Shown in pieces: positions 4,857-53,320 of a DNA stretch of 64,000 nt. The translations under genes and the position numbers were made by a program. The DNA comes from Candidatus Phycocordibacter aenigmaticus (GTDB taxonomy: Bacteria; Patescibacteriota; Minisyncoccia; Phycocordibacterales; Phycocordibacteraceae): assembly GCA_045401115.1 (NCBI GenBank), contig CP174359.1:547247-611246 (forward strand). The letters are read 5' to 3'. The notes beneath the pieces were generated by a model. That model ran no database searches. It was not told where the DNA came from and was given only the letters and a program-made list of their open reading frames with translations. The first letter of the stretch is position 1. The number at the start of each line of letters is the position of its first letter.

Positions 4857-4883
4857 AAAAACGCCCTAATGGGCGTTTTTTTA
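4855..4883. terminator. bidirectional intrinsic terminator hairpin (ACGCCC-TAAT-GGGCGT flanked by A-run and T-run)
   Basis: Perfect 6-bp GC-rich stem with A7 upstream and T7 downstream; sits between convergent recR (+) and rplU (-). Confidence 0.7.
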
Positions 4884-4893
4884 ATTACTATTT

Positions 4894-5208
4894 TTATACT
4901 GAAGTAATCTTCACTTTTGTAAATGGCTGGCGGTGACCTTTTAACTTAGTACGGTTACTCTTTGGTTTATAGCGAAAGACAATTTTCTTTGGAGCTTTGC
5001 CAGCACCAATTACTTCACCTTCTACTTTAGCGCCTGAAACCGTTGGAGTTCCAATCTCAGTCTTCGTACCATCATCGGTCATCAATACTTCATCAAAAAC
5101 AACCTTATCACCTTTTTGAGGATCTCCAGGAAGTTTCTCTATCGTCAAAAGCGCGTCTTCGTGCGCGATGTACTGCTTCCCGCCTGTTTTAATAACTGCG
5201 ATTTTCAT
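4894..5208 (-). CDS. rplU: 50S ribosomal protein L21
   Basis: 104 aa; MKIAVIKTGGKQYIAHEDALLTIEKL... matches L21; basic C-terminus. Confidence 0.88.
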   Translation of the reverse strand: MKIAVIKTGGKQYIAHEDALLTIEKLPGDPQKGDKVVFDEVLMTDDGTKTEIGTPTVSGAKVEGEVIGAGKAPKKIVFRYKPKSNRTKLKGHRQPFTKVKITSV

Positions 5209-9954: not shown

Positions 9955-9966
9955 TATCTCTAGTTA

Positions 9967-9998
9967 TAAAAAATGGCTCACCTTAGTGAGCCATTTTT
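9967..9998. terminator. bidirectional intrinsic terminator (AAAAAATGGCTCACC-TTAG-GTGAGCCATTTTTT)
   Basis: Perfect palindrome with A-run and T-run; lies between convergent genes. Confidence 0.75.
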
Positions 9999-10019
9999 TA
10001 TGTAGCTGATTTTTATTTG

Positions 10020-11240: not shown

Positions 11241-11255
11241 AGAACATCTATGTTG

Positions 11256-11327
11256 TGACCCTACGGGGAATCGAACCCCGATTTTGAGCTTGAGAAGCTC
11301 ACGTCCTAACCGTTAGACGATAGGGCC
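11256..11327 (-). tRNA. tRNA-Glu (anticodon CUC)
   Basis: Hand-folded cloverleaf: 7-bp acceptor GGCCCTA/TAGGGTC; D-stem GTCT/GGAC; anticodon stem TGAGC/GCTCA with loop TTCTCAA (U33, anticodon CTC, A37); T-arm CGGGG-TTCGATT-CCCCG; discriminator A; CCA not encoded. Confidence 0.85.
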
Positions 11328-11451
11328 GAAGAATCTGAGGAAAGTACGAAGAAAAAGAAGATGAGGACGACGGAGAAATTGACGACCTTTAGCTTAAGCT
11401 AAAGGGAGAAGATTTCTCCAAGTCCTCGCTGGTTTTTCAAAGTAATTTTCC

Positions 11452-11610
11452 AGAGTCTGAGGCCCTATCGTCGTTTTGCACGATAGGGCCAAAGAATGTT
11501 CTGCGTACACAACGCAGATTTTAAAAGAACGAGGCCCTATCGTCGTCAAAGACGATTCTAAGGCCGAGAAGTCTGAGGCCCGTATTATCGTCAAAGACAA
11601 TCCTAGAGCC
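11452..11610. repeat. cluster of palindromic/direct repeats derived from the tRNA-Glu 5' end (GGCCCTATCGTCG), each preceded by GA(R)TCTGAGG
   Basis: GGCCCTATCGTCG-TTTTGCA-CGATAGGGCC perfect palindrome at 11461-11490; further copies at 11533-11545 and a degenerate one at 11577-11592; each followed by an ATCGTC..GACGAT mini-hairpin; TCTGAGG recurs at 11334, 11454, 11571, 11633. Confidence 0.5.
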
Positions 11611-11688
11611 GTTCAAAGAATATAGCATTTTGCCTCTGAGGAATAAAGCCTCCTATATAAGACCTGCTGTATGATAGGATTTAATTAT

Positions 11689-11866: not shown

Positions 11867-12166
11867 GTGGGTTTCTGGCAGAGTCTTGATGATACGCATC
11901 TTACTATTGAATACCTTCCTGATGGCACACTCTATGAATACTATCGAGGAGCGCTTCACCAAAAAACTTCATGGAAATTTGTAACTCGTAGAAAGGGCGA
12001 TAACCACGCCATACTCTATTTAAAAACATCAAAAAAACTGTACGGGACCAAGCAAGACGCCTCTGAATACTTACTTATAAAACTTACTGACACAGAGCTA
12101 GTGCTCGATTTTTTTGATCGAAGTAATAAATTACGGTACAAACGCCCTAACACAATAGAAAACTAA
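11867..12166 (+). CDS. hypothetical protein
   Basis: 99-aa ORF with a GTG start; the frame is open upstream back to 11762 with no ATG; no recognised domain. Confidence 0.35.
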   Translation: MGFWQSLDDTHLTIEYLPDGTLYEYYRGALHQKTSWKFVTRRKGDNHAILYLKTSKKLYGTKQDASEYLLIKLTDTELVLDFFDRSNKLRYKRPNTIEN

Positions 12167-13458
12167 CGAATAAGCCACTCAGGGTCTTGGCGCGCTAATA
12201 ACTCTTCTGCCATAGCGGGATTTTTCATTAATTTCTTAGTCACATGCTCCATGCGCATACTTTGTGACCCTTTAATAAGTACAGTATCGCCTGAACTTAA
12301 TTCTTTACGAAGAAAAGCAATTGCTTCGCTTCTTTTTTCAAACATATGGATACAGGAATCGGGCATACCTGCCTGCGCCGCACCTTCAGCAATATGGCGC
12401 GCGCGGACACCCACAACTACAAGCATATCGCTTAAGTCATGTGCCAATATACCGATTTTTTTATGTTCTTCTTTTGAGTATGAACCGAGTTCAAGCATGT
12501 CACTGAGTACCGCAATGCGCTTCCCTTCTGTGGGCACGCTCTGGAGAGTATGCAGAGCCTTCTCAGTAGCTGTTGGAGACGCATTATAGGTATCATCAAT
12601 AATTAAACCTCCATACGAACCGTCAATTAACCGTAAACGCCCTGGCGGTGGGTTATATGCCTCTTTCACGCTTTCAAGCACGCTAAAAGGTGCACCAGCA
12701 GCCATAGCCCCAGCAATACCGGCAAGTATTGCATACACGTGTGTCTCCCCAATTATTCCATCAACAGAAATAGGAAGTGTCTCTTCTTTATAGTGTACGG
12801 AAAAAGAAATACCCGCGGCAGTGCCTTGTGAGGTGCGGACACGATACCGGGTTGCACGTATATCAGCATCTTTTGAAAACCCATAACTGATACGACGAAT
12901 CCCTTCTTTAAGAGGATACACACGTGAACGCTCATCATCACTATTTATGACCGCAACCCCTCCTTCAGTGAGTTGCGTCAATGGAAAAATTTCCTCTTCA
13001 AACACTGCTTCGGGAGAAGTATAGAACTCAACATGTACCGGCATTTCTGGAAAACGCGTAGTTACTACAATATCTGGTTTAAGCCAAGAAAGTGATTTTG
13101 AAATATCACCTGGACGATCTGCTCCAACCTCAAGGACCAACCACTGTGGGTATGGCATACGAATGATTAACAACAAAAAACCATCAATAATATTTTGCAT
13201 CCACTGTATCGGATTGGTCCATCCATTTGGAACACCTAATACTGTCAGTGGGACCCCAATGTCAGCGTTAAAACTTTTTTCACTTTTACGTACAAAAGCA
13301 TGCTGAGAGAGTGTTGAATAAATCGCGTCTTTTGACGACGTCTTCCCTACTGAACCAGTTACTACAATAATCTTTGGCCGGTATCGTTTTAATACGGCAC
13401 GTGCTTCAAGAGCTAAAATAAACACGACTATATCTCTAATGGTTTCTTTAATATTCAT
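12163..13458 (-). CDS. Mur ligase family protein (MurF/MurE-like UDP-MurNAc-peptide ligase)
   Basis: 431 aa; Mur ligase P-loop VVTGSVGKTSSKD; central and C-terminal Mur ligase domains; downstream of ftsI in dcw order. Confidence 0.8.
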   Translation of the reverse strand: MNIKETIRDIVVFILALEARAVLKRYRPKIIVVTGSVGKTSSKDAIYSTLSQHAFVRKSEKSFNADIGVPLTVLGVPNGWTNPIQWMQNIIDGFLLLIIRMPYPQWLVLEVGADRPGDISKSLSWLKPDIVVTTRFPEMPVHVEFYTSPEAVFEEEIFPLTQLTEGGVAVINSDDERSRVYPLKEGIRRISYGFSKDADIRATRYRVRTSQGTAAGISFSVHYKEETLPISVDGIIGETHVYAILAGIAGAMAAGAPFSVLESVKEAYNPPPGRLRLIDGSYGGLIIDDTYNASPTATEKALHTLQSVPTEGKRIAVLSDMLELGSYSKEEHKKIGILAHDLSDMLVVVGVRARHIAEGAAQAGMPDSCIHMFEKRSEAIAFLRKELSSGDTVLIKGSQSMRMEHVTKKLMKNPAMAEELLARQDPEWLIR

Positions 13459-38779: not shown

Positions 38780-38854
38780 TGTTGCAACATTAAGAGTATA
38801 TAACTATGACATATATAATATATATGTCAATTTTCACTATAATAAAGTACGAAT

Positions 38855-38880
38855 AAACAGCTCACCTAGGTGAGCTGTTT
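38855..38880. terminator. palindromic terminator (AAACAGCTCACC-TA-GGTGAGCTGTTT)
   Basis: 12-bp perfect stem; A/T-rich flanks; sits between convergent genes. Confidence 0.6.
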
Positions 38881-38914
38881 ATGTGAGGTCAATAGTATGT
38901 AATTTTAGAATCAC

Positions 38915-40523: not shown

Positions 40524-40665
40524 TACACGCAGTATACGGTAGAAGATGTTTTTTTTATGAACATATAAATAATTCTGTGAATTACAGACTCTCTCAAATG
40601 TAACCTCTGTTGTGTGTCAAGGACATCCCTTGACTGGGTCTTGTTTTAAGCCGCCAAATGTATCT

Positions 40666-40688
40666 GTAGCAAGGACCGACCTCGCTAC
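40666..40688 (-). repeat. hairpin of the GGTCGGTCC-loop family (GTAGCGAGG-TCGGTCC-TTGCTAC on the minus strand)
   Basis: First member of a six-member hairpin family between 40.6 and 44.9 kb. Confidence 0.5.
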
Positions 40689-40825
40689 AGAAAATTCAAA
40701 CATCGTGCGCCGTATCTTTATGCAGTAGCGCCTTTAGGTTTTTCCTTTTTAGGTTTCTTTTTTTCTTTTCGTCTATCTTGTCCTTTTGACATATACGTAT
40801 ATAAGTTCGAGCGTAGTATAGCACC

Positions 40826-41128
40826 CTACTGAGATGTATCTTTATCCTTTGGAAATCCCCACTGCCATTTTGGCGGCTCCCCTTTCCAATATCCAATGGC
40901 AATAATTATCGCTACCATAACAATAAGGATGGCGAAGTATTCAAGCACCTTCTCTTCGACAAGTAAAAACTGCGCGGCGAGTACCAACACCGCAACAGCA
41001 GCGAGCACTACCAACCACCCCTGCCAGGTCACCGGTGTCCAACCCCAACCGAACACCTTCCGTTTAAACCAATACTCTTCGGGATTGTCTTTATAATAGG
41101 CGACAAATTTTTTAATCCAGTTCATATA
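40826..41128 (-). CDS. hypothetical membrane protein
   Basis: About 100 aa from MNWIKKF...; two TM helices; Trp-rich; start moved to the internal Met to avoid a 59-nt overlap. Confidence 0.4.
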   Translation of the reverse strand, partial: YMNWIKKFVAYYKDNPEEYWFKRKVFGWGWTPVTWQGWLVVLAAVAVLVLAAQFLLVEEKVLEYFAILIVMVAIIIAIGYWKGEPPKWQWGFPKDKDTSQ

Positions 41129-41153
41129 TTTAATTATAATATTTATTAATGCG

Positions 41154-41759
41154 TTAGAGGGCACTCTCCCCTTCAAAATCAGGCACCACAATACCCCACT
41201 GCATGCGCTCAAGGTCGAGTTTCAGATACGCACTTTTTCCAATACTTGGTTGTGTTGTCATCGGTTCACCCGGCGCGCGATCGACATAATTCACTACCAC
41301 CACATTTACGTGACGCGGGTTGGGACTCTCCCCAATTGTTTGTGGAGCAACACGATCACCGAGTAAGTAGCCGTCTGAGCCGACATAGCCGTCTTCAGTG
41401 TTTAGTGCGGCAACTGCATAGTAGAATGTGCCACTTCCGCCGGTCTCCTGGGTAAGCAAGAACACCACATCATCACGGCCATCATCGTTAAGGTCAGTCA
41501 CAAATTCATTGCCAAAATAACGAGTGACTGTTTTTGATTCAGCATTGGAACCTGTGTCCGTTTCGGCAATACCGTTTTTAAGCATCACGTTCTGTCCATC
41601 AATACTGTATTCTATATTTTTATAATCAGAAGCAGTAACTACCGGTGCCTGAGCAGTATCGTCTTTTTGTAATCCGTATAGCATAAAAGCACCCCCAAGT
41701 AGCACTACTGCTGCGATAGCAAGGAGGATATTTTTGTGTTTTGAGTGGCGCATGAACAT
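41154..41759 (-). CDS. hypothetical secreted or membrane-anchored protein
   Basis: 201 aa; N-terminal signal/anchor (ILLAIAAVVLLGGAFMLYG). Confidence 0.45.
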   Translation of the reverse strand: MFMRHSKHKNILLAIAAVVLLGGAFMLYGLQKDDTAQAPVVTASDYKNIEYSIDGQNVMLKNGIAETDTGSNAESKTVTRYFGNEFVTDLNDDGRDDVVFLLTQETGGSGTFYYAVAALNTEDGYVGSDGYLLGDRVAPQTIGESPNPRHVNVVVVNYVDRAPGEPMTTQPSIGKSAYLKLDLERMQWGIVVPDFEGESAL

Positions 41760-41851
41760 AGTATGTAGGGGTTAGATTATAAGAACACTTCAGTGCTGAT
41801 TATAGCAAGGGTTTAGTGGCAAGGTCGGTCCTTGAAAAAATGTGTGGCGAG

Positions 41852-42043
41852 TTAAGATAGTTTTGCTAAGAAGCGGTATATCACGAGCGGTACCCAGATT
41901 AAAAAGCTGGCTAAGCCAATTATAAAAAAGGTTACGGGAATTTTCTCAAATGAAACCGGTTCCAGCCAAATCATAGCAAGCACAGAGACGGCACAAATGA
42001 GCATTGCGCTCCAAAACATCCATAAGCTTATTTTTTCAGTCAT
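41852..42043 (-). CDS. small hypothetical membrane protein
   Basis: 63 aa; two TM helices. Confidence 0.3.
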   Translation of the reverse strand: MTEKISLWMFWSAMLICAVSVLAMIWLEPVSFEKIPVTFFIIGLASFLIWVPLVIYRFLAKLS

Positions 42044-42106
42044 TACCTAACCATACCCCTCGCCTTGCCTATAGGTTACGTACCGTTTACAGATCCTTAG
42101 TTTGTT

Positions 42107-42553
42107 ATGATACATAACATGGATATATTCCACGCATGGCACACTATGCTCAATATGCCAAAACATGATGAGGCGTGGCACAGGAAAGATATGGCGGATG
42201 AGCTGGCTGAATATAAAGAAGCGCACGGCTTAATAGATACATGGAGTGAATTGTCTGATGTTGTGTATACCTATACTCGTGCAAAATGGTCTAACCATAC
42301 CAACATCATTTTTCCTTTTTCAAAATTATCCTTTTATATAGGCGCGCTGTACATGTTTCCAAAGTACACTTTGCGTTGGAAATTTTTTCAAAAACTCGGT
42401 TATCAATTTGATAAAAATTTAAACATTCGTGAAGTACGCAACCCAAAGAAAATAGAAAAACTAAAAACGATTGCTGAAGCATACGACTTAGACACTGAAG
42501 AATTCGTTAGTGCTGCAAAGAGACTCATGCGTTATTGGTTTTTTCTTAAATAA
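42107..42553 (+). CDS. hypothetical protein
   Basis: 148 aa; no recognised domain. Confidence 0.4.
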   Translation: MIHNMDIFHAWHTMLNMPKHDEAWHRKDMADELAEYKEAHGLIDTWSELSDVVYTYTRAKWSNHTNIIFPFSKLSFYIGALYMFPKYTLRWKFFQKLGYQFDKNLNIREVRNPKKIEKLKTIAEAYDLDTEEFVSAAKRLMRYWFFLK

Positions 42554-42655
42554 ATACCCTGTCTCACGGTCGGTCCTTGAGACAGGTGGGAAAGGGTGCG
42601 TTGTGATACGATACGTAGAGTTAGTAGTATTCTTTAATTCACTTGTTTTAAAATT

Positions 42656-43792
42656 ATGATACAGAAAATAAGCCTCTTTCTTACCCTTTGTTTACTTGTT
42701 GTGACCGCACTGCCAAGCACCGCCCTGGCAGCACAGTTTGAAGTAGGTGAACAACCATCGCTTCCCACTGGCGCCATTATTGATGACGTCTACATGGCAG
42801 GAGGCAATGTGCATTCTGCAGCGGATATAACCGGTGACCTGGTTGCCGGTGGCGGTAATGTACTTATCGATGGTTCCATTTCTGAGGACTTAATAACTTC
42901 TGGAGGTTCAGTGACCATCACTGGCGCTGTTGGCGACGACCTGCGTGTTGCCGGTGGTGCAGTAACTATTACCGGTGCTATTGGCGGTGATGTGGTGGCG
43001 GGTACCGGGCAACTACACATCAGCGGTGAAGGCATCGGCGGCGATCTTGTATGGGGCGGCGGTATGTTGCAACTCAACGCACCGGTTGCCGGTAATGTAC
43101 GCCTCGGTGGCGGTGAAGTAATTATTAATGCACCTATTGAAGGTAGCGTAGAGTTTTACGGTGACACACTTATTCTCGGCAGCGATGCGTCTATCACTGG
43201 CACCTTGACCTATCAATCACCAAACGAAGTGATTATGAAAGATGGCGCAGTAGTAAACGGAGAGATCTCCTACGAACAAACAACACCTAAAGACATGGTT
43301 GATGTTTCAACGGTTGCCACTATTTTCTCTGTGGTGACACTTATTGCCTTCTTAATGTGGTTAGTCGCCGGTCTGGTGATTGGTCTTGTGTTCCGTCGCT
43401 ACACCACCACTGTTGTGACACACGCCCTTACGCGTCCTCTCGCATCTCTTGGGTATGGATTGAGTGCCGCTATCGTGCTCCCTATTATCTCCATTATCCT
43501 CCTCTTCACTATCATTGGTTTACCGTTTGCAGGTTTAGGCTTGATTGCCTTTGCTGGACTCATGTTGATGGGCGCTATTCTGACTCCGATTGCACTTGGC
43601 AGTTTGCTAATGAAATGGACTGACCGCCAACCTGAATATGTGGTGAACTGGAAGAGTATTCTCCTTGGTGTTCTGGTGTATATGCTTCTTGGTTTTGTTC
43701 CATTCATTGGTGGATTAGTGCAGCTCATTCTTACCATCATGGTGATTGGTGGCATCGTGAAGCTCAAGCTTGATATTGCTAAGGAATGGTAA
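42656..43792 (+). CDS. beta-helical repeat protein (bactofilin/DUF4097-like Gly-rich repeats) with signal peptide and four C-terminal TM helices
   Basis: 378 aa; about ten tandem ~17-aa repeats of the form GGxVxIxGxIxGDLxxxGG; hydrophobic C-terminal third. Confidence 0.5.
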   Translation: MIQKISLFLTLCLLVVTALPSTALAAQFEVGEQPSLPTGAIIDDVYMAGGNVHSAADITGDLVAGGGNVLIDGSISEDLITSGGSVTITGAVGDDLRVAGGAVTITGAIGGDVVAGTGQLHISGEGIGGDLVWGGGMLQLNAPVAGNVRLGGGEVIINAPIEGSVEFYGDTLILGSDASITGTLTYQSPNEVIMKDGAVVNGEISYEQTTPKDMVDVSTVATIFSVVTLIAFLMWLVAGLVIGLVFRRYTTTVVTHALTRPLASLGYGLSAAIVLPIISIILLFTIIGLPFAGLGLIAFAGLMLMGAILTPIALGSLLMKWTDRQPEYVVNWKSILLGVLVYMLLGFVPFIGGLVQLILTIMVIGGIVKLKLDIAKEW

Positions 43793-43834
43793 TACAAGGG
43801 GTGTAAACGACATCACACTTCCCTATTTACACTA

Positions 43835-43865
43835 AAAATAGCGAGGTCGGTCCTCGCTATTTTTA
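43835..43865. terminator. intrinsic terminator hairpin of the GGTCGGTCC-loop family (AAAATAGCGAGG-TCGGT-CCTCGCTATTTT)
   Basis: Stem of 10 bp or more with A-run and T-run; 3' of the 42656-43792 gene. Confidence 0.65.
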
Positions 43866-43884
43866 GTGGTTATGTATAAAAATT

Positions 43885-43913
43885 TCTCAAGACCAGTCCT
43901 TGAGATTTTTTTT
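43885..43913. terminator. bidirectional terminator (TCTCAAG-ACCAGTC-CTTGAGA-T8), loop variant of the same family
   Basis: 7-bp stem plus T8; 3' of the minus-strand gene 43925-44857. Confidence 0.65.
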
Positions 43914-43924
43914 GTTTTAAGGGG

Positions 43925-44857
43925 TTAGGTGTGTTTTTCTAAGAAGTGGTCAAAGGCCATCTTTCGAATGGTGTCTCCCTCAGCTGTAAGACTGTGACCG
44001 CTTGATTGGGCGATGACCAGCTCTGCATTATTCATTTTTCCGGCGAGTTCGTATGCTTTCTGCAGCGGGCAGAGTATGTCGTAGCGGCCATGCACTATCA
44101 CTGCCGGTATGTCTGCGATCTTATCGACGTTGTTGAGAATATAATTGTCCGGAATGAACTCATGATTCATTTCATAGTGAAGGAAAATGCGCACTGATGC
44201 GATATCGTCTTCAGTCACCTCTTCAGGGTCCTGGTATGATACGGCGGAAAGTGTTGAGAATAAGTTTCCTTCCCAGTCTTGCACCTCTGCGGCAAGTTCT
44301 CTTTGCTGTTCCGGAGTCGCCTCATCAAACGCTTTGAGTATGTCCTTGTTCTGCGATTCCACGTTAATGTTGAAGCGCTCAAAGAACTTCATGCGTTTCT
44401 CCCACACATCAGGCATAAGACGCGCGACACCCTTGGTGTCTTCCATACACCAAGCAATTGAATCGCGGTCTGCAAGGAATACTGCGGTAATCAAAATGCC
44501 ACGTACCTTCTCTGGGTGTTTAATGGCATACAGCAGTGCCAGTGTTGAACCCCAACTTCCACCTGAAACAAACCACTTTTCAATACCAAGCTGTTCTCTG
44601 ATTCTCTCGGCGTCATGAAGAAGGTGGTCGGTAGTATTGTGTTCCAACTCCCCGCTTGGCGTGCTTTTCCCACATCCGCGCTGGTCAAAGAGAATAACGC
44701 GGTAGGTATTCAAATCATATGATTTTGCATAGCGCGGCTTGCTGCGTGAACCTGGCCCGCCATGAAAGGACAGTATCGCCGGCCCCTCAGGGTTTCCGTA
44801 TTCAGAAAACGAAACAATATGTCCATCCTCCTCTGGTAGTTGGTGTTCTTTTTTCAT
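43925..44857 (-). CDS. pip: proline iminopeptidase (alpha/beta hydrolase, S33)
   Basis: 310 aa; HGGPGS oxyanion motif; nucleophile elbow GGSWGS; C-terminal His. Confidence 0.8.
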   Translation of the reverse strand: MKKEHQLPEEDGHIVSFSEYGNPEGPAILSFHGGPGSRSKPRYAKSYDLNTYRVILFDQRGCGKSTPSGELEHNTTDHLLHDAERIREQLGIEKWFVSGGSWGSTLALLYAIKHPEKVRGILITAVFLADRDSIAWCMEDTKGVARLMPDVWEKRMKFFERFNINVESQNKDILKAFDEATPEQQRELAAEVQDWEGNLFSTLSAVSYQDPEEVTEDDIASVRIFLHYEMNHEFIPDNYILNNVDKIADIPAVIVHGRYDILCPLQKAYELAGKMNNAELVIAQSSGHSLTAEGDTIRKMAFDHFLEKHT

Positions 44858-44890
44858 ATGTTTATGATACCAGATAACGAGGTCGGTCCT

Positions 44891-44926
44891 CGCTATTTTA
44901 AAAATAAACAGCTCAATGGGTTGAGC
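44891..44926. terminator. palindromic terminator (AAATAAACAGCTCAA-TGGG-TTGAGCTGTTTATTTTT), preceded at 44864-44889 by a GGTCGGTCC-loop hairpin
   Basis: 11-bp stem with A/T runs; 3' of the gene 44961-45911. Confidence 0.6.
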
Positions 44927-44960
44927 TGTTTATTTTTGTCTTATATTTATGAAATTTCTC

Positions 44961-45911
44961 CTATGACTCAGTACGGTTTTGCTTTTGTAGTGTGAACTGA
45001 ATTTTGTAAGTATAAAAGTCGATATTAGGGGCAACAGATAACGCTCGGTGTATTTTTACATCATCCTCAAATCCAATAATAGCGCCGCGCACTGTTTGTC
45101 CTGGCTCCGCAAGTTCTTCTTTTACATAGCCCATATAACGTTGAATCTGGCCCACCACGGTGTCAGTAACTCGACCACGTTTAAGTTCTACAACTAACAG
45201 GTTCCTTTTATCTTTACTGATTGCAAGAATGTCTATAGGGCCGGTATCACTGGGGTACTGCCTTCCAACCCTTTCGCCATCTACCTCATAGATATCATAT
45301 TTCTCACCAAGCTCCATGTGAGTCCAGTTATGTTCTAGGAAGTCTTCTAGATGCTTCTCTAAGGCAAATACGCTTGGGTCTTCAATTGTGGCATCGGCTG
45401 AAACGATAGTGGCTGGAGCCTTACCTTCTAGGAGTAATTTCAATTCTTCAGCATGAGCTGAAACGTTACTCACTGTTCCAATCGAACCTGCTGAATTACG
45501 TAATGATTCACTCATGTCTTCTCGAGCAATTGTTTGCTTATACCACTTAACAGGTCGACGATGCGGCAAAACCTTACCTGGGTGATATTCATAATCACCG
45601 ACCACTTCTGCAATGTGATATTTACCATCACCGCTCGGAGAAAGAACAACGTCACCAACACTAACACCTTTTATAATTGTATGGAGCATCCCGCACGCTA
45701 AACCAGCCGCTACTTTTGATTTTTCTGGATTCTGCTCAATGTAAACCGGTATAAATTCTTTATTAAAATCTCGCCATGCTTCCGGGATTTTGCCATTCAA
45801 ATCAATGTCTGGCAGCCAACCAGCACCAATAAAGCTCTCGTTTAGTGCGTCTTGTATGTGTGCACTTTTAGCACCCTGCATCACTCTGTAGTAGCTTTTC
45901 ATAATTCCCAT
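44961..45911 (-). CDS. nuclease with C-terminal NucS/DUF91-type PD-(D/E)xK domain and N-terminal unknown (possibly DNA-binding) domain
   Basis: 316 aa; C-terminal PIDILAISKDKRNLLVVELKRGRVTDTVVGQIQRYMGY (D...E-x-K...QxxxY) typical of the NucS C-domain; immediately downstream of hsdR. Confidence 0.55.
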   Translation of the reverse strand: MGIMKSYYRVMQGAKSAHIQDALNESFIGAGWLPDIDLNGKIPEAWRDFNKEFIPVYIEQNPEKSKVAAGLACGMLHTIIKGVSVGDVVLSPSGDGKYHIAEVVGDYEYHPGKVLPHRRPVKWYKQTIAREDMSESLRNSAGSIGTVSNVSAHAEELKLLLEGKAPATIVSADATIEDPSVFALEKHLEDFLEHNWTHMELGEKYDIYEVDGERVGRQYPSDTGPIDILAISKDKRNLLVVELKRGRVTDTVVGQIQRYMGYVKEELAEPGQTVRGAIIGFEDDVKIHRALSVAPNIDFYTYKIQFTLQKQNRTES

Positions 45912-45930: not shown

Positions 45931-48732
45931 CTACCACTCAAAAATATCTACAATATCTTTAATTGCTTCGCGGATGCGATTAACCACAGACTTATGCTCC
46001 ATGAGTCGAGGGCGTTCTGGCAAGCGCTCGACAATGTCTTCACCACTTGGAAGTCGGTCTGTGTATAGATACTCACCAATTAAAACCTCAACATCTTCCA
46101 TTGAGATGTTTTCAGTTTCTGTGAGGTGTCGCAATGTTGTAGAGCGTTCACTTGCCCAAAATTCAGAAAATGCAGCTTCAACATCTTCAGAGCGTGATAC
46201 TTGAGGAAGATTTTCTTCAATAAACTTCCTTACTAAGTCTTTCTTCTTACGAAGGTTTACGTCACGATCGAATACTTTCAAAATATCTTCTGTCTTCTTA
46301 GCTCGCGCTGCATCAGAAGTAATGTTCTTTAGGCCAGCAATGAGTTGGATGATGTAGTCGAAGTTAACAAGATCTCGAACGGTTAGCTCAAGCTCAAAAT
46401 CAATTTGATCAAGAATTGATTCTTTTTCCTTATCTATTGTTTTACTTTCAGCATATATATCAAGGTACTTACTCTGATAGTCATAGAACTCTTGTTCTGT
46501 AATACCAAGGTCATCAAAAGAGAATTCGGCAAAAGTTTCTAGCGACGATTTGATACGAAGCAGATCACGAAATGACTGAACAAAGTCCGCTTTCTCTTGC
46601 TCGCCTTGCAGAGAATCAACGGAGTCTGGATTCGTTACTTTTTCTCGAAGCTCATCTAACTTTTCTTTAAATTCTTTCTTCTGCTCCTCATAAGGCTTTT
46701 TAAACACTACCTCCTTCGCATTCTCATCACCGTAAAGGGCCAAGGCCTTGTCGGTCGCTTCCTTAAGGTTTCGGAATGAAACAATATTGCCGTGCGGCTT
46801 ATCGGAGTTCAAAAGACGATTGGTTCGAGAATAGGCCTGAATGAGTCCGTGATAGCGCAAGTTCTTGTCTACATAGAGCGTATTGAGCCGTTTGCTATCA
46901 AACCCGGTCAGGAACATATTCACTACTAGAACTAGATCTACTTGTTTGTTTTTAATTCGCTTCTGGATATCTTTATAGTAATCATAAAACTTATCCGTAC
47001 TGTAGTTCGTGCTATAGATAGCGTTGTAGTCTTTAATACAATTCTCTAGAAAATCACGAGAATGCTGATTCACGCTAACGCCTTCCGTTTCCAAAGGATC
47101 ATTATCTAAGTCTGCATTCTCATCATCAGACTCATTGGCATGATAGGTGAAAATAGTAGCAATCTTCATATCCTCAGGGGCCCTTTCTTTAAATAGTGTG
47201 TAGTAGCGCTTGAGAACATCAATGCTGGTTACTGCAAATAGAGCGTTGAATTTTCCAGCCTTTGTTTTCTTTTTCCAGTCGTGGAGTACGTAGTCGGTGA
47301 TTTTTTCAAGACGATCCTGGCTTTCAAGCACTTCCTTCGTATCAATTCCCTCCACCATTGCGTCTGAAAAAATGTCTGCATCAAGTACGTCGGGATCTTT
47401 TTGCTTATATTTACCAACATATTCTACTGAGAACCCGAGTACGTTGTTATCACTAATAGCGTTGGTGATGATGTATTTATGTAAACAATCAGTAAAGACA
47501 TCTTTAGTTGTAACCTTGCCAATATGATTCTCCGCAAAAATAGGTGTGCCAGTAAAACCAAACAGTTGTGCTTTATTAAAGAAACTTTTAATACGTGTGT
47601 GTGTTTTCCCAAATTGACTTCTGTGGCACTCATCAAAAATAATCACTACCTTTTCATCCTTTAGATATTCAAATTGCTTCAAATATGGCCCTCTCCCAAT
47701 CGCAATATCAAGCTTTTGGATAGTAGTAACAATGAGCTTGCGATTTGGATCGGCTAACTGCTTCACTAGAGCACTAGTATTATTTGTGCCATCAACTGAG
47801 CCATCAGAAAATGAATTAAACTCTTCAGTGGTCTTAATGTCTAAGTCCTTACGGTCTACCACGAACATTACTTTCTTAATATCAGGATTTCGGGCAAGAA
47901 TCTGGCTAGTCTTGAATGCTGTCAAGGTCTTCCCCGCCCCGGTTGTGTGCCAGATGTAGCCATTCTTATTTGATTCATTTACCTGCTTCTCCAAGGCTTT
48001 CACTGCGTAATACTGATATGGCCGGAGCACCATTGGTATTTGTTCTGCCTCTGCTAATACTGTATGCTCCGCTATCATTTCTGATACCGCACACTTCTCT
48101 AGGAAAATATCAGTGAAATCTTCAAGCTTGGTGATTTTCTTATTATCGACATCAGTCCAATAAAAGGTCTGCTCGAATGTTTGCTTTGGATTATTAGAAA
48201 AGTACTTAGTATTTACGCCATTGGAGATGACAAAGATCTGTACGTATTCAAAAAGCGTGCCCGTAAATGAATGTTTGTGGTATCGCTGTATTTGATTAAA
48301 CGCTTCCTTCATTTCAATACCGCGACGCTTTAGTTCGATCTGAACTAGAGGTAGTCCGTTAATTAATAGCGTTACGTCATAACGATTCTCATACTTGCCG
48401 ACTTGTGTGATTTGCTGGGTTACCTGATACTCGTTTTTGCACCACTGGTCCATGTTGAAGAACTGAATCCAGATAGTGGTTTCATCGTCACGCTTTAGGG
48501 AGAAACGGTCACGCAGGGTCTTGGCTTTATGGAAGCGGTCACCTTTCATGAGATAATTCATGATGCGAGACCACTCATCATCTGAGAATGTGGTGTTGTT
48601 AAATTTCTCTAGTTGGGAACGGAGGTTAGCTTCAAAAGCAGCAGATTCTTCGACTACAACCGGCTCAAACCCCAAGCGCGTTAATCGCTCGATCAGTGAT
48701 TTTTCTAGTTGTGCTTCGGATTGATGGGTCAT
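45931..48732 (-). CDS. hsdR: Type I restriction enzyme R subunit
   Basis: 933 aa; N-terminal HsdR_N nuclease region; SF2 motor with Walker A HTTGAGKTLTAF and DEAH-box FDECHRS; C-terminal helical domain. Confidence 0.9.
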   Translation of the reverse strand: MTHQSEAQLEKSLIERLTRLGFEPVVVEESAAFEANLRSQLEKFNNTTFSDDEWSRIMNYLMKGDRFHKAKTLRDRFSLKRDDETTIWIQFFNMDQWCKNEYQVTQQITQVGKYENRYDVTLLINGLPLVQIELKRRGIEMKEAFNQIQRYHKHSFTGTLFEYVQIFVISNGVNTKYFSNNPKQTFEQTFYWTDVDNKKITKLEDFTDIFLEKCAVSEMIAEHTVLAEAEQIPMVLRPYQYYAVKALEKQVNESNKNGYIWHTTGAGKTLTAFKTSQILARNPDIKKVMFVVDRKDLDIKTTEEFNSFSDGSVDGTNNTSALVKQLADPNRKLIVTTIQKLDIAIGRGPYLKQFEYLKDEKVVIIFDECHRSQFGKTHTRIKSFFNKAQLFGFTGTPIFAENHIGKVTTKDVFTDCLHKYIITNAISDNNVLGFSVEYVGKYKQKDPDVLDADIFSDAMVEGIDTKEVLESQDRLEKITDYVLHDWKKKTKAGKFNALFAVTSIDVLKRYYTLFKERAPEDMKIATIFTYHANESDDENADLDNDPLETEGVSVNQHSRDFLENCIKDYNAIYSTNYSTDKFYDYYKDIQKRIKNKQVDLVLVVNMFLTGFDSKRLNTLYVDKNLRYHGLIQAYSRTNRLLNSDKPHGNIVSFRNLKEATDKALALYGDENAKEVVFKKPYEEQKKEFKEKLDELREKVTNPDSVDSLQGEQEKADFVQSFRDLLRIKSSLETFAEFSFDDLGITEQEFYDYQSKYLDIYAESKTIDKEKESILDQIDFELELTVRDLVNFDYIIQLIAGLKNITSDAARAKKTEDILKVFDRDVNLRKKKDLVRKFIEENLPQVSRSEDVEAAFSEFWASERSTTLRHLTETENISMEDVEVLIGEYLYTDRLPSGEDIVERLPERPRLMEHKSVVNRIREAIKDIVDIFEW

Positions 48733-50588
48733 GTTGTTGTTGAAAGGTTATCGTCAATCCACTTGAAAATAACTTCAAAGCTTTGTACTGCCTCATTAGA
48801 CAAGTTTTCTTTCTTAATTTCTTCTCGCTCTACCTTAGAAGCAAACTCTCTAGCAAACAATATTTTTCTCCTACCAATGATTGTAGAAGGTTTTCGTTTA
48901 TCATCAGTTTTAATCTTTTTATCAACCAGAGAAAAGTCCTTAACTGTAAACAAATTTTCAATTTCGCTTTTAGATATCAGCTTAATTTTCTTGTTTGTCT
49001 CATTATCATCACCATTAAAAATTCGCTCCTTTAAATCTTCTTTTGTCATTTTTGGATTCTCACCATTGTCCATAACAAGCAACCAATCTAAGCCATAGCC
49101 TATACAAAAAGATATAAGGTGATAAATATGGTTTCCTTTAATGCCAATACCTGGAACAAACTTGTAGTCAATTTCTTTATCAAGGATTTTTGCCATTGAT
49201 TTGAAATACCAAAAATCAGACAGACCTTCTAGTAATACATTCTTTCTAGAAAGAACAGAGAAGTCCTTAAGTGGCTCTAAGCCCATTGCTTCTGCAATAG
49301 GTTGCAATGCCTCTTGTTTGTAGGTCGTATCTAACTTGGTGGTAGTCAATCCTTCAACAATGGTTCCATTGTCCTTGGTATTTATAACTAGTCCAATATT
49401 ATAAAGCAATTCTGTGTTAATTAGCGAAGGAGAATGAGTTGAGTAAATTACCTGGTGGTTCTTTTTAATCAATTCGTCGAACACGTTCAGTATGTCTTTA
49501 TGTGCTTTAACATGGAGGTGCAATCCAGGTTCGTCATACAAAATAACTCGCTTTCGGCCGTGTTCCATTGATTTAAGCTCCAACCACGCAGATAAAAACC
49601 AAATCATTCCTTTGCTTCTTTTTCTCGGCTCTAGAAGCACATTATCTTTTGTTTCTATATAGAAAAATACAGTTGGAACGGCCTGACTGTTTACACTTTC
49701 ATTGTTTATTTGAAATTTTATATACAAATCACCCTCTGAGTATATTCTTTGTTTCCATGCTTTTTGGAATTTAGTAGACAATTTCGTTACATTAGTGGAT
49801 GTCACAGATGTCTGGTGACTGTTCGACAATTTAGATATCGAAACAAAATCCTTATCTAGCAACTCTTCGAGATTTTTAACGGCATTGTATCCTTCTGCTT
49901 CCGTATTTCTTGATTCAAGGTCTGAGATTTTTATTTTATCTGGCAACAAATCGCTGAAAGCGTTAAACAAAACAATTTCAGGAGAGATACCAAAAAATAC
50001 TTCTGCAACTTCTTTTTCCTTTCCTTCTAAATCTATCCAGGGAGTTTTGTTCTTAACCTCCTTTCCATCGGTGTTCGTTTCAACAACCTCCTTATTTTTG
50101 ATAGCACCTCGAACGATACCGAAAACAGAGTCCGTTAACGACATCTCTAAAGTATTTGATTCAAGATTGAATTGTTTTGTAATTGTGTATTCTTTTACTG
50201 ATTTTAGTTTACCTTTATCAAAAAAATCATCCTCATCGCCAATTGAAAAAGTTTTGCGAAATTTCTTAATTAGAGAATTAGCCAAATCATCAGAATCATC
50301 CACTAAGTAAGTACACGAGATTTCCTGTGTAAAATTTTCTGCCTGCTCTTCTTCAAAATTTAATGAATCCCTTTCAAATTCTTCACTTTCGTAGGCATTA
50401 AGTGCTTCTAGTATTGAACTTTTCCCTGATTCATTTTGCCCAGCCAATACAAACATACTCTCAGAAAAGATAATATCTCCTGAATCTTTTATGCTCTTAT
50501 AATTTTTAATTGAAACTTTTTTTATCATAGTATTTCTACACAAACATTTTTTGAAGCAGCCCCTTTTTCCAAGCTTCTGCTTTTTCAA
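48729..50588 (-). CDS. OLD-family / PARIS(AriAB-fusion)-like ATP-dependent nuclease: N-terminal ABC-type ATPase (AAA_15/21) plus C-terminal TOPRIM/DUF4435-like domain
   Basis: Walker A GQNESGKSS; Walker B and signature ILYDEPGLHLH; H-loop STHSP; C-terminal Toprim-like LLEGLSD...LLVMDNGE; the start may be the internal Met at 50528; the stop overlaps the hsdR start (ATGA). Confidence 0.7.
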   Translation of the reverse strand: MKKQKLGKRGCFKKCLCRNTMIKKVSIKNYKSIKDSGDIIFSESMFVLAGQNESGKSSILEALNAYESEEFERDSLNFEEEQAENFTQEISCTYLVDDSDDLANSLIKKFRKTFSIGDEDDFFDKGKLKSVKEYTITKQFNLESNTLEMSLTDSVFGIVRGAIKNKEVVETNTDGKEVKNKTPWIDLEGKEKEVAEVFFGISPEIVLFNAFSDLLPDKIKISDLESRNTEAEGYNAVKNLEELLDKDFVSISKLSNSHQTSVTSTNVTKLSTKFQKAWKQRIYSEGDLYIKFQINNESVNSQAVPTVFFYIETKDNVLLEPRKRSKGMIWFLSAWLELKSMEHGRKRVILYDEPGLHLHVKAHKDILNVFDELIKKNHQVIYSTHSPSLINTELLYNIGLVINTKDNGTIVEGLTTTKLDTTYKQEALQPIAEAMGLEPLKDFSVLSRKNVLLEGLSDFWYFKSMAKILDKEIDYKFVPGIGIKGNHIYHLISFCIGYGLDWLLVMDNGENPKMTKEDLKERIFNGDDNETNKKIKLISKSEIENLFTVKDFSLVDKKIKTDDKRKPSTIIGRRKILFAREFASKVEREEIKKENLSNEAVQSFEVIFKWIDDNLSTTT

Positions 50589-51735
50589 TTTGCTTGGACT
50601 TTGCAGTGATTAACTCATCAATATCCGATAGAAAGTTAGCAATTCTTTTCTGCTCGTCAACACTTGGCATTGCAATTTCGACCCTTACAAAATCATCAGG
50701 CTTTACTGCCATTCTTTCGTAAACAGTTCCTTCTTCAAACCGTCTTGCTTTGTTAATAAAACTTGAATGAGTTAAGTAATATCCAACAAAATCAATATCC
50801 TGTTCGGTAATTTCATATGTTATGTAAATAGGAGAGAATATTCCGTCACCTAGTCTGTTAATATCTATTACATTGAATTTTAAATTGGCTGGGTTGTAAC
50901 ATAAATCATTTAGTCTAGTGATTTTGTATTTTTTTGATTTATCATCTTTTACTAAGAAATCCCTATGGTAACGTTCCGACTTTGGAACCACACCTGCTGT
51001 AGTTAATGAGATATGAGGATACCCGTTTCCTTTGGTTGAATATTCTTTCCTCTCTTTGAGAAAGTGACCGACAGGCATTTTTTGCCACTCAGGGAAGTAT
51101 TTCCCGTCTTCATCCTTAAATCGCACTTCTTGCGAGAAGATTTTTTGCATTATTCCGCGCTTGTATTCTTCAAGTTTTTCTTTTTGGGTTTTGAATGATT
51201 TGATTAGTTTATCTACACTCTCTAAGAAATTAGCGATTTGTGCTTGCTCATCTACTCCTTTTGGAAAGTGAATTGGAGATGCTGATACAAAGTCCCATTC
51301 AGCTCTTGGCATTTTTGAGCCAGCACTTACATTTGCAAAATAGTTAAATCTAGAGCCTTGTATAAAATAAAACAGAAATGAAGGCTCTACTTTTTTTGTT
51401 TTAAAAACCCATATTTCAGTAGTACATACACCATCAGATTTTGCATGTACGAATTTTCTTAGATAGGGTCGTAATTTTCCATACAACACATCGCCCAATT
51501 GGTATACATTTTTAATACTCTTTAGTTCTTGGGTTGGGATATATTTAATAACCTCGCCTGTATCCTTTTCGATGCTTTCTAGCTCTATTGAGTGAGGATA
51601 TTTTTTTGATTTCTGGGGGTCAAATTTCTCTTTACCAAGTTTAACTACATCGCCAAACTCGTATATACTCCACTCGCCTAAAAATCCAGGGAACCGCAGT
51701 TCGGGTGTATTCTTTTTTGTAGTCGCTGTATTCAT
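50536..51735 (-). CDS. hsdS: Type I restriction-modification specificity subunit
   Basis: 399 aa; two target-recognition domains separated by conserved coiled-coil repeats (e.g. LLQKIFSQE / GLLQKMF). Confidence 0.85.
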   Translation of the reverse strand: MNTATTKKNTPELRFPGFLGEWSIYEFGDVVKLGKEKFDPQKSKKYPHSIELESIEKDTGEVIKYIPTQELKSIKNVYQLGDVLYGKLRPYLRKFVHAKSDGVCTTEIWVFKTKKVEPSFLFYFIQGSRFNYFANVSAGSKMPRAEWDFVSASPIHFPKGVDEQAQIANFLESVDKLIKSFKTQKEKLEEYKRGIMQKIFSQEVRFKDEDGKYFPEWQKMPVGHFLKERKEYSTKGNGYPHISLTTAGVVPKSERYHRDFLVKDDKSKKYKITRLNDLCYNPANLKFNVIDINRLGDGIFSPIYITYEITEQDIDFVGYYLTHSSFINKARRFEEGTVYERMAVKPDDFVRVEIAMPSVDEQKRIANFLSDIDELITAKSKQIEKAEAWKKGLLQKMFV

Positions 51736-51742
51736 AGTTAAA

Positions 51743-53320
51743 TTAAAACGGTTTTTTTATACCCAACTCGTTACAGAATTCGACAATAGCTTTTTCAAGT
51801 TTCTCTTCACCTGCTTTTAATTTATTCAGCTCTTCTGCGATAGTATCAATATCGACAGGGTTTTCTTCCTCAAATGTATCTATGTAACGGGGGATGTTTA
51901 AATTGAAGTCGTTTTCTCTGATTTCATCCAGTGACGCGTTGTGAGAATATTTTTCAACCTCCTTACGATTTTTATAAGTGTCAAAAACCTTAACTATGTC
52001 TTTATCTTCTAAGTGGTTTTGATTTTTTCCTTTATAAAATTCTCTCGATGCTTCAATAAACAAAATGCTGTCATCTTTTTCACGGCACTTCTTGAATACG
52101 AGAATAGTCGCGGGAATTGTCGTTCCATAAAAAAGATTTTGCGGAAGACCAATAACCGCATCGAGATAATTTAATTTCTCAACGATGTACTGACGAATAG
52201 TTCCTTCTGCCCCCCCACGAAATAGTGCGCCATGCGGCAATACCACCGCCATGGTGCCGTTATCAGCCAAGTGATGAAGCATGTGGGTTACAAAAGCATA
52301 ATCCGCAGCGCTTTTTGGTGCCAGGCGGCCATATTGTGTAAAGCGATCATCTTGAGCGAGTATTGGGTCAGTATCACCTTTCCATTTAGCGGAGAATGGC
52401 GGGTTGGCCACAATAACCTCTGCTTGTAAGTCAGAGTGCTGATCATCTCTAAGCGTATCGCCTTGGCGAATATCAAAACGATCAAAGCGCACATCATGGA
52501 GAATCATGTTCATCCGAGCAAGGTTGTACGTAGTCTGATTAAGCTCTTGTCCGTAGTAGTGCTTGATTTCTGCGTAGTCAGAAAGACGCAAGAGTAATGA
52601 GCCAGAACCACAGGTGGGGTCATAGGCAGATTTAATAGTCTTCTTGCCTTCTGTGACAATCATAGAGAGCAAGCGCGATACCTGAGCTGGTGTATAAAAC
52701 TCACCACCTTTCTTTCCAGCACCAGCTGCAAATTCACCAATTAGATATTCGTATGCGTCACCGAGTAAATCGCTTTTGCTATCTGCTAGTTTAAAGTCGA
52801 TACCAGCCAAGTGAGAGAGAACTTCTACTACAGTGTCGTTCTTATCTTTTTCAGTTCGTCCAAGCTTACTTGAGGACAGGTCTACATCATCAAACAAGCC
52901 TTTGAAGTCGTCCTCACTATCGGTACCCATTGCAGTGCGTTCAATGGTGTCAAGAACGTTTTGAAGGTCTTCGAGAATAAAGGTATCATTCTCATTAATC
53001 TCACCCTTCCCTTTCGTTACGAGGTATGAAAACAGTTCCTGCGGGCGAAGGAAAAAACCAAGATGTTCAATGGCGAGATCTTTAATTGCACCAAGCTGCT
53101 CTTTACCTTCTTTGGTGCTTGGGTTGATATCAGCGTATGCAAAATCTTCACGAGCGAGAAGTTTTTCATTTACATACAGCTCTAGTTTTTCTGAAAGGTA
53201 TTTATAGAAAATAAACCCAAGAATATACACCTTATACTCATCCGCATTCATACGACCGCGGAGTGTATTAGCAACAGCCCACAACTGTTTTTCAAGAAGT
53301 TTCTTTTGCTCTTCCGTCAT
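51743..53320 (-). CDS. hsdM: Type I restriction-modification N6-adenine DNA methyltransferase subunit
   Basis: 525 aa; HsdM N-domain; motif I DPTCGSGSLLL; motif IV NPPF (VANPPFSAKW). Confidence 0.9.
   Translation of the reverse strand: MTEEQKKLLEKQLWAVANTLRGRMNADEYKVYILGFIFYKYLSEKLELYVNEKLLAREDFAYADINPSTKEGKEQLGAIKDLAIEHLGFFLRPQELFSYLVTKGKGEINENDTFILEDLQNVLDTIERTAMGTDSEDDFKGLFDDVDLSSSKLGRTEKDKNDTVVEVLSHLAGIDFKLADSKSDLLGDAYEYLIGEFAAGAGKKGGEFYTPAQVSRLLSMIVTEGKKTIKSAYDPTCGSGSLLLRLSDYAEIKHYYGQELNQTTYNLARMNMILHDVRFDRFDIRQGDTLRDDQHSDLQAEVIVANPPFSAKWKGDTDPILAQDDRFTQYGRLAPKSAADYAFVTHMLHHLADNGTMAVVLPHGALFRGGAEGTIRQYIVEKLNYLDAVIGLPQNLFYGTTIPATILVFKKCREKDDSILFIEASREFYKGKNQNHLEDKDIVKVFDTYKNRKEVEKYSHNASLDEIRENDFNLNIPRYIDTFEEENPVDIDTIAEELNKLKAGEEKLEKAIVEFCNELGIKKPF

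Follow-up and report, generated by a model that had tools for sequence, protein, structure and literature searches.

Patescibacteria have tiny, streamlined genomes, in which repeated non-coding DNA needs explaining even when it amounts to a few dozen nucleotides. The 64-kb stretch of Candidatus Phycocordibacter aenigmaticus analysed here (contig CP174359.1, positions 547,247 to 611,246; hereafter the window) contains six short hairpins with a common tip, H1-H6, all within a 4.3-kb segment, and so raises the question of what these elements are and how they arose. A first-pass annotation had described them as a family of hairpins sharing a conserved sequence. We find that they are a genuine, non-random and correctly localised sequence family, and we put at about one half the probability that they are paralogous copies of one short palindromic repeat, akin to repetitive extragenic palindromes (REPs), which would spread and be remodelled locally as DNA and act as hairpins at transcript ends.

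The family is set apart from its background by count. Its nonamer, GGTCGGTCC, has five exact matches in the window (40673-, 41823+, 42568+, 43845+ and 44881+, signs giving the strand) against 0.16 expected and at most one in each of 100 shuffles, and every one of the five sits at the apex of an inverted repeat. If as many as two mismatches are tolerated, there are 69 matches where 77 are expected, a chance-level count, so the exact copies have no halo of degenerate ones. The sixth hairpin, H5, is a diverged copy akin to H3. The six window copies were aligned with five from two metagenomic contigs, L124 and L125 (alignment A1, 11 copies), and a covariance model, one of the checks that the first-pass annotation had proposed, was built from A1 and run on the window with filters off. 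All six members, H5 being part of the seed, score between 32 and 43.5 bits; the next best window hit reaches 11 bits (E = 1.5), and the model finds no further copy in the 64 kb, the count being zero in the roughly 60 kb outside the 4.3-kb cluster. Between 40.5 and 45.0 kb there are seven consecutive intergenic spacers, of which five hold the hairpins; in a Monte Carlo test that scattered six elements over the 8.2 kb of the window that are intergenic, so small a span had P = 7e-5. Outside the cluster the arm sequence TAGCGAGG occurs once in the 64 kb, which is chance level, and the nonamer not at all. These results bear out the first-pass description of a hairpin family with a shared conserved tip, confined to 4.3 kb and seen nowhere else in the window; that annotation had located all six sites, although its hairpin limits were off, those of H6 (44864-44889) dropping the right arm.

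Could six unrelated, ordinary terminators have come to look alike by chance? The tip does recur in a phage hairpin (L191/L195) and a Vibrio terminator (L072), both single copies between convergent genes, and terminators with the same tip in unrelated organisms are to be expected in databases this large. Against such an explanation stand the excess of exact nonamers, identities of 21-26 nt between copies, and the want of a U-tract in four of the six; ordinary terminators, unlike the family, do not have a loop and closing pairs in common. As a control, 28 incidental nonamers in unrelated loci have at most four flanking complementary pairs, and the nonamer is therefore not intrinsically hairpin-associated. 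Chance resemblance is hardly credible, being refuted by the nonamer count, the covariance scan and the clustering probability. No Rfam 15 family matches the hairpins at the gathering threshold, which tRNA-Glu alone passes in the window.

The nonamer had at first been taken for the loop. Its GG and CC, however, pair with each other; the true loop is the pentanucleotide TCGGT, and the conserved unit is C-R-A-G-G-TCGGT-C-C-T-Y-G. The repeat unit has a conserved core of 11-15 nt, CRAGG-TCGGT-CCTYG, usually with arms such as TAGCGAGG/CCTCGCTA, and the family can be expressed as the search pattern RAGGTCGGTCCTY. Two paralogous subfamilies are distinguished by their arms, TAGCGAGG versus TCTCA/CAAGG: H1, H4 and H6 read TA[G/A]CGAGG...CCT[C/T]GCTA, and H2, H3 and H5 read (TCT)CA[A/C]G(G)...CCTTGAGA. 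Copies are nearly identical inside a subfamily, H4 and H6 at 25 of 26 nt (ATA[G/A]CGAGGTCGGTCCTCGCTATTTT), H1 at 20 of 21, and H3 and H5 at 17 of 21. In A1, 85.5% of cells are paired, double changes occur at seven of the ten stem pairs, and none of 500 shuffles is as good. Columns 14-24 are invariant or nearly so, and all eleven tip nucleotides are kept in 8 of the 11 copies (five of six in the window, three of five on L124/L125); the tip is conserved far beyond the lower stems, as the first-pass annotation had said. Because the rows of A1 are paralogous repeat copies, this ‘covariation’ is for the most part a difference between subfamilies and not the independent evolution of orthologous hairpins, and the pair count shows that hairpins have been maintained across subfamilies, not that compensatory changes evolved independently. 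The co-varying stems claimed at first stand in so far as seven of ten pairs are doubly changed, and fall in so far as there are two subfamilies of largely shared descent rather than six separate solutions.

Table 1. Hairpins of the family and neighbouring features, in window coordinates. Hairpin sequences are given as left arm, loop and right arm.
Feature	Positions	Strand	Sequence and properties	Covariance score (bits)
H1	40663-40691	-	minus strand TCTGTAGCGAGG-TCGGT-CCTTGCTACAGA; 12-bp stem, one G.U	36.9
H2	41820-41834	+	CAAGG-TCGGT-CCTTG; minimal copy, 5-bp stem, core only	32.1
H3	42558-42586	+	CCTGTCTCACGG-TCGGT-CCTTGAGACAGG; one C/T mismatch; -17.8 kcal/mol	34.4
H4	43830-43868	+	CACTAAAAATAGCGAGG-TCGGT-CCTCGCTATTTTTAGTG; perfect 17-bp stem	43.5
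H5	43885-43905 (43913 with T-run)	+	TCTCAAG-ACCAGTC-CTTGAGA, then T8	32.7
H6	44874-44896	+	ATAACGAGG-TCGGT-CCTCGCTAT	38.2
Neighbouring hairpin, kinship uncertain	40616-40634		GTCAAGG-ACATC-CCTTGAC; 30 nt from H1	
Second-family bidirectional terminator, not a family member	44900-44937		AAAAATAAACAGCTCAA-TGGG-TTGAGCTGTTTATTTTT; 17 bp	
144-aa protein gene	42119-42553	+	522 homologues in Paceibacteria/Parcubacteria (60-73% identity); in neither a Pfam nor an NCBIfam family	
DUF8173 gene	42656-43792	+	protein 100% identical to ACJKTH_03250	

The spacers that hold the copies (Table 1) differ in the arrangement of their genes. H4 and H5 share the spacer between the convergent DUF8173 (+) and hydrolase (-) genes; H4 has a GC core with an A5 run before it and a T5 run after it and folds with -26.9 and -25.8 kcal/mol, and H5 has the canonical form of a terminator. 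H3 begins 5 nt past the stop codon of the 144-aa gene, 70 nt upstream of the DUF8173 gene, and H1 sits in a 302-nt spacer between the genes for a 99-aa membrane protein and an Ion_trans protein, both on the minus strand. H2 is flanked by two minus-strand genes, is followed by a plus-strand A-run and folds with -4.3 to -5.6 kcal/mol, and H6 is 17-39 nt upstream of the hydrolase start codon, again between two minus-strand genes. At H2 and H6 the motif is hence antisense to transcription; at H1, H3 and H4 its strand is the transcribed one, and H5 is between convergent genes. A U-tract on the transcribed strand is present at H4 and H5 only, the T-run of H6 being on the non-transcribed strand and H1-H3 having none, so that the original statement that most members carry U-tracts as terminators would was wrong. 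In the two copies that have a transition mismatch, the transcribed strand, on which the mismatch becomes a G.U pair, gives the more stable fold whichever way the loop is read: H1 at -19.9 kcal/mol against -15.5 on the other strand, and H6, whose plus-strand A/C mismatch is the G.U pair of the transcribed minus strand, at -11.3 against -9.0. These two cases suggest that the stem is selected as RNA in whatever orientation a copy landed, with the loop sequence coming along.

Two further features lie close to H1. The hairpin 30 nt away from it has the closing stem CAAGG/CCTTG of H2, H3 and H5 with a different loop and is missed by the covariance model; its kinship with the family is uncertain. A polypyrimidine tract of about 55 nt (tttttcctttttaggtttctttttttcttttcgtctatcttgtcctttt; 40735-40790, +) shares the 302-nt spacer.

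The same map bears on whether a dimeric transcription factor could use the sites as double-stranded DNA operators, the imperfect palindrome being CRAGG-N5-CCTYG. They are palindromic and independent of orientation, and a gene starts 17-170 nt downstream of each of H1, H2, H3 and H6. H4 and H5, on the other hand, are flanked by convergent gene ends, a place without a promoter; the stems reach 12-17 bp, far past the length of an operator; conservation is highest in the 5-nt centre, which is not palindromic, and the half-sites vary; and the G.U-compatible mismatches indicate pairing at the level of RNA. We consider operators very unlikely.

Beyond the window, a scan of metagenomes with the pattern TARCGAGGTCGGTCCTYGCTA returned two contigs, L124 and L125, neither of which has anything besides the hairpins in common with the window. 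L125 (GC 47%) carries AAATAGCGAGGTCGGTCCTCGCTATTT, identical to the core of H4, together with an IS30-like transposase and a YcaO gene. L124 (GC 53%) has four or five copies in about 330 nt and in mixed orientation, which is not coincidence. One of them (copy a, at 80-106 of the contig) reads CCCCAGAGG-TCGGT-CCTCTGGGG followed by T5 and lies inside a likely real open reading frame (ORF), that of a membrane-anchored protein, in which it specifies ...TPEDRPLG... of the linker that follows the transmembrane helix. It may be an in-frame palindrome within a gene, as in some REPs and in Rickettsia palindromic elements. The L124 membrane protein was compared with the window's 201-aa protein as a possible homologue at an orthologous position, and the two are dissimilar. 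Another copy has a 7-nt duplication mirrored in its two arms, ATAGCGA-GTAGCGA-GG ... CC-TCGCTAT-TCGCTAT, with one loop substitution; a hybrid copy, with GTAGCGAGG as its left and CCTCTGGG as its right arm, stands beside both parental arm types; and in front of a further copy, GTAGCGAGG-TCGGT-CCTCGCTAC, arm plus loop are tandemly duplicated (14 nt). We read these variants as signatures of slippage, template switching and exchange in the core, and therefore of processes at the level of DNA.

Relatives were sampled through the DUF8173 protein, the 144-aa protein and L124's TPR protein (L120-123, L184-186 and L200-207), and in the approximately 134 kb of non-redundant DNA from these other Paceibacteria neither the pattern nor the covariance model finds a family member. 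Given the L124 cluster and this stretch without members, the family is patchy between genomes and clustered where present. The closest relative (89% amino acid identity, Logan contig L119) is a 1.2-kb contig that ends short of both flanking hairpin positions. Scans of viral contigs with two 15-mer cores gave counts roughly at chance level and no multi-copy locus, and H4 has no match by BLAST in plasmid and phage collections. A 17-mer, GCGAGGTCGGTCCTCGC, gave singleton matches in contigs of high-GC genomes (L002-L118), many of which are a coding motif and not the family: the sequence encodes (I)REVGPRDG(F/L)Q (EVGPRD) of HMG-CoA-lyase-like enzymes and is a trap for pattern searches. In the literature searched, the literal motif sequence appears in primers only, and no earlier description of short intergenic palindromic repeats of Patescibacteria was found.

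The potential to fold, the positions, the clustering, the presence elsewhere and the rearranged copies can all be read directly from these DNAs, and tight clustering, lower stems that are complementary and yet differ locally, and hybrid copies are what short-range copying at the level of DNA would leave. In the REP-like reading, short-range copying of the unit as DNA would be accompanied by three kinds of remodelling: slippage, template switching from arm to arm (quasipalindrome correction), and recombination or exchange in the 13 nt of the shared core. Of these, template switching is established as a source of mutations at quasipalindromes (PMC7202029). Whichever orientation is transcribed, each copy would fold into a stem-loop: H4 and H5 would jointly serve the convergent DUF8173 and hydrolase genes as a bidirectional intrinsic terminator, while H1-H3 in co-directional spacers and H6 in a 5' leader would be intercistronic or untranslated-region hairpins that, as REPs do, block exonucleases, stabilise messenger RNA or bring about partial termination. 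Transcription, the terminating or stabilising activity and the copying mechanism are what we infer from sequence. By analogy, the unit is most likely the functional counterpart, in a Patescibacteria genome, of intergenic palindromes of the REP or terminator type.

REPs are palindromic repeats of 20-40 bp found mainly downstream of ORFs, between unidirectional or convergent genes; they are often clustered in opposite orientations, are sometimes intragenic, and have been proposed to serve as terminators or as mRNA-stabilising hairpins (PMC3733652). The family resembles them and BIMEs (bacterial interspersed mosaic elements) in its GC-rich, imperfect palindromes of 15-39 nt with stems of 5-17 bp, in the intergenic location of all six window copies, mostly downstream of ORFs and with unidirectional or convergent neighbours, in the mixed-orientation cluster and intragenic copy a of L124, in its stem-differing subfamilies and in its presumed role as a terminator or mRNA-stabilising hairpin. 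Some copies also start with GTAG and end with CTAC. In REPs it is the stems and an unpaired GTAG or CGTC tag that are conserved while loops vary (PMC3733652); here the GTAG of H1 and of copies c and d of L124 is paired with CTAC inside the stem and is not an unpaired end tag, H4, H6 and L125 have ATAG, H2, H3 and H5 have neither, and the tip is conserved instead of the stem. REPs typically number more than 100 per genome (PMC2817692); the 64-kb window has six copies of the present unit, all within 4.3 kb. No RAYT (Y1 transposase, PF01797) is present among the window proteins scanned for domains, namely ORFs of at least 120 aa and the genes of the cluster; the same scan found no recombinase, integrase, HUH or Rsr/TROVE gene.

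Several of these observations weigh against the REP-like reading. Typical REPs show the opposite of a tip that exceeds its stems in conservation, and neutral copying by itself would not predict such a tip; no copy occurs in the window's other 60 kb; neither a RAYT nor another candidate mobilising enzyme is encoded among the scanned proteins; and H2, with a modelled stability of -4 to -6 kcal/mol, would be too weak to do much as RNA. The single match on L125 could moreover be the chance convergence of a terminator, since the information in a hairpin amounts to about half its length and the database is very large. As for the conserved tip, either the copied unit is the core alone, as in H2, or something reads the tip.

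If something does, the tip (GG-UCGGU-CC on a short stem) might be a sequence-specific site for a protein or RNA, through which neighbouring genes are co-regulated post-transcriptionally. Consistent with this are the invariance of the tip in five of six window and three of five L124/L125 copies despite wholly different lower stems, the double changes that preserve pairing at seven of ten stem pairs, and the restriction of the copies to one gene neighbourhood. By the gene map, however, transcripts would read the loop as UCGGU at H1, H3 and H4 and as ACCGA at H2 and H6, which argues against a single-stranded RNA loop as the common determinant. The best copy, H4, has convergent genes on its two sides, the genes that flank the copies are unrelated in function, Rfam has no such family, no candidate RNA-binding gene is linked in the window or on L124/L125, and the motif is absent from the approximately 134 kb of relatives that have the same conserved genes. 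We hold a regulatory site of this kind to be unlikely. Of the protein- or RNA-binding determinant that the first-pass annotation had seen in the tip, a single-stranded RNA loop is made less likely by the mixed orientation, and a protein-binding tip is possible.

The hairpins might instead be DNA sites of a tyrosine-recombinase or HUH-type enzyme, their centre the point of crossover or nicking, that bound modules of one or two genes. Successive copies do bracket 0.7-1.3 kb with one or two genes, the centre is conserved and asymmetric with inverted arms, and the cluster is in the variable half of the window, adjoining a restriction/defence island; the hybrid-arm copy of L124, beside both its parents, is what exchange in a shared centre would give. 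That hybrid and the duplications are equally explained by slippage or by homologous exchange across the 13-nt core, though, and the arms, normally what such enzymes read, are the variable part. There is no recombinase, integrase or HUH gene in the 64-kb window, and the 144-aa gene inside one of the ‘modules’ is a conserved core gene of Paceibacteria. Integron attC sites are 55-140 nt long, have conserved bases at the foot of the hairpin (the R''/R' core sites RYYYAAC / GTTRRRY) and are served by the integron integrase, and in the pdif sites of Acinetobacter the 11-bp arms are conserved; either kind of site depends on a recombinase, linked or of the host. The family shares with attC and pdif the general form of imperfect palindromes that bound one- or two-gene modules in a variable region; its members are 15-39 nt long, with no core sites, no conserved arms and no integrase among the scanned proteins. 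Recombination sites are improbable here. Unlikely as well is a reading in which an uncharacterised, hairpin-specific enzyme of Patescibacteria, an HUH protein or a recombinase, recognises the tip (GG-TCGGT-CC) or exchanges strands there, and copies the palindromes or exchanges the modules.

DNA uptake sequences that are arranged as inverted repeats in Neisseria and Pasteurellaceae and act as terminators offer a further comparison: there the conserved word forms the arms and is over-represented genome-wide, coding regions included, at about one per kb. The likeness is that of a short conserved word recurring in terminator-like hairpins and common to related organisms; the difference is that the family conserves its tip, and that GGTCGGTCC and TAGCGAGG are not over-represented outside the cluster.

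At H6 a structured RNA came into question. When Rfam is searched permissively, H6 and the adjacent hairpin (44851-44958, +) align over the full length of the YrlA family (Rfam RF02553) at 34.9 bits (E = 7e-4 in the window), second only to the true tRNA, with H6 on the T-arm-like helix and AGCUCAAUGGGUUGAGCU on the D-arm-like helix; the region folds with z = -6.1. This would make the pair a tRNA-mimicking Y RNA and the family a set of T-arm-like hairpins. The score is half of the gathering threshold of 69, though, and a plain terminator at 4855-4921 gives a similar false hit, to OrzO-P, at 34.6 bits. T-loops obey a rule at U54/A58, and the loop here has 5 nt, not 7, and lacks those positions. 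The central helix is aligned with five non-canonical pairs, the opposite strand folds better (z = -8.0), the other five copies give no such hit, and the scanned proteins include no Rsr/TROVE protein. A YrlA-like RNA is extremely unlikely, and we judge the match to be spurious for its sub-threshold score, misfitting loop, missing Rsr gene and better-folding opposite strand.

For the REP-like reading, the other terminators of the window are a natural yardstick. Those at 4852, 9966, 11209, 16953, 24621, 34485, 38853 and 44900 consist of an A-run, a stem, a tetra- or pentaloop and a T-run. H4 and H5 resemble intrinsic bidirectional terminators in their GC-rich stems, A-runs and T-runs and convergent genes; H1, H2, H3 and H6 differ from them in having no U-tract on the transcribed strand. 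Three of the window's terminators, at 9966-10001, 38853-38882 and 44900-44937, form a second family (AATAAACAGCTCA.../...TGAGCTGTTTAT; 74-84% identity). In L204, a Paceibacteria relative, two near-identical 40-nt terminator hairpins (12035-12074 and 13361-13400) lie 1.3 kb apart in a stretch rich in restriction and defence genes. With the window's second family, this pair makes locally repeated terminators seem a habit of these genomes. A terminator at 1157-1191 of L204 has the 9-nt arms of our family in swapped order, AAAAACCTCGCTA-AAACA-TAGCGAGGTTTTT. The terminators at 38853 and 44900 bracket the whole 6-kb region with the hairpin cluster; the one at 38853-38882 is palindromic over all of its 30 nt, and its position is exactly where Logan contig L001 begins.

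The first 34 kb of the window are housekeeping genes (dnaB, recR, a mur ligase, penicillin-binding proteins, mraZ/W, mreBC, aminoacyl-tRNA synthetases, frr and murA). From about 35 kb the content is more variable, with nucleases, NUDIX and small membrane proteins, Type I restriction, Mrr and a Dam-like methylase, and the hairpins at 40.6-44.9 kb directly precede the restriction island. The first-pass annotation had also proposed examining whether the hairpins mark the boundaries of horizontally acquired genes; the genes between the hairpins do not look so acquired, since the 144-aa protein has 522 homologues and GC content is not deviant. An origin of the flanked genes as cassettes or by horizontal transfer is accordingly rejected for the 144-aa gene, and GC carries no signal; judged by its homologues, the 144-aa protein is a strongly conserved protein of the candidate phyla radiation (CPR), of unknown function. 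In L120, a DUF8173 homologue (6214-7605) is 2.4 kb from a diversity-generating retroelement (bAvd and reverse transcriptase).

Downstream of the cluster, a NucS-C-like PD-(D/E)XK protein (44961-45911) adjoins a Type I restriction-modification operon of hsdR, hsdS and hsdM (45931-53320, -), in which hsdR and hsdS are separated by an inserted gene for an AAA_15/PtuA-like ATPase (48729-50588). The stretch at 59.6-62.3 kb adds an Mrr-type nuclease, a Dam-like methylase and a DUF7687/DUF7690 protein, and together these genes look like a defence island. In the housekeeping half, three degenerate hairpin-forming repeats that start with GAGGCCCTATCGTCGT occupy 11440-11615 (+). They lie 130-290 nt upstream of the gene for tRNA-Glu (11255-11327, -) and, in the reverse of its orientation, hold the first 12 nt of that tRNA (GGCCCTATCGTC); the 835-nt stretch around them has no ORF of at least 120 aa.

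The hairpins are best filed with short intergenic palindromic repeats and terminators, with the conserved tip as their unusual trait, and on present evidence the finding is a modest and tidy one. If the family is REP-like, it is a handle on how terminators and mRNA-end hairpins originate and spread in reduced genomes, a turnover that the rearranged copies of L124 display directly in their mirrored arm duplications and hybrid arms. Should an enzyme or a binding protein read the tip, the family would mark a new small mobility or regulatory system; and were that reader a hairpin-specific enzyme, it would be a miniature REP-, attC- or pdif-like mobility system common to distantly related CPR genomes.

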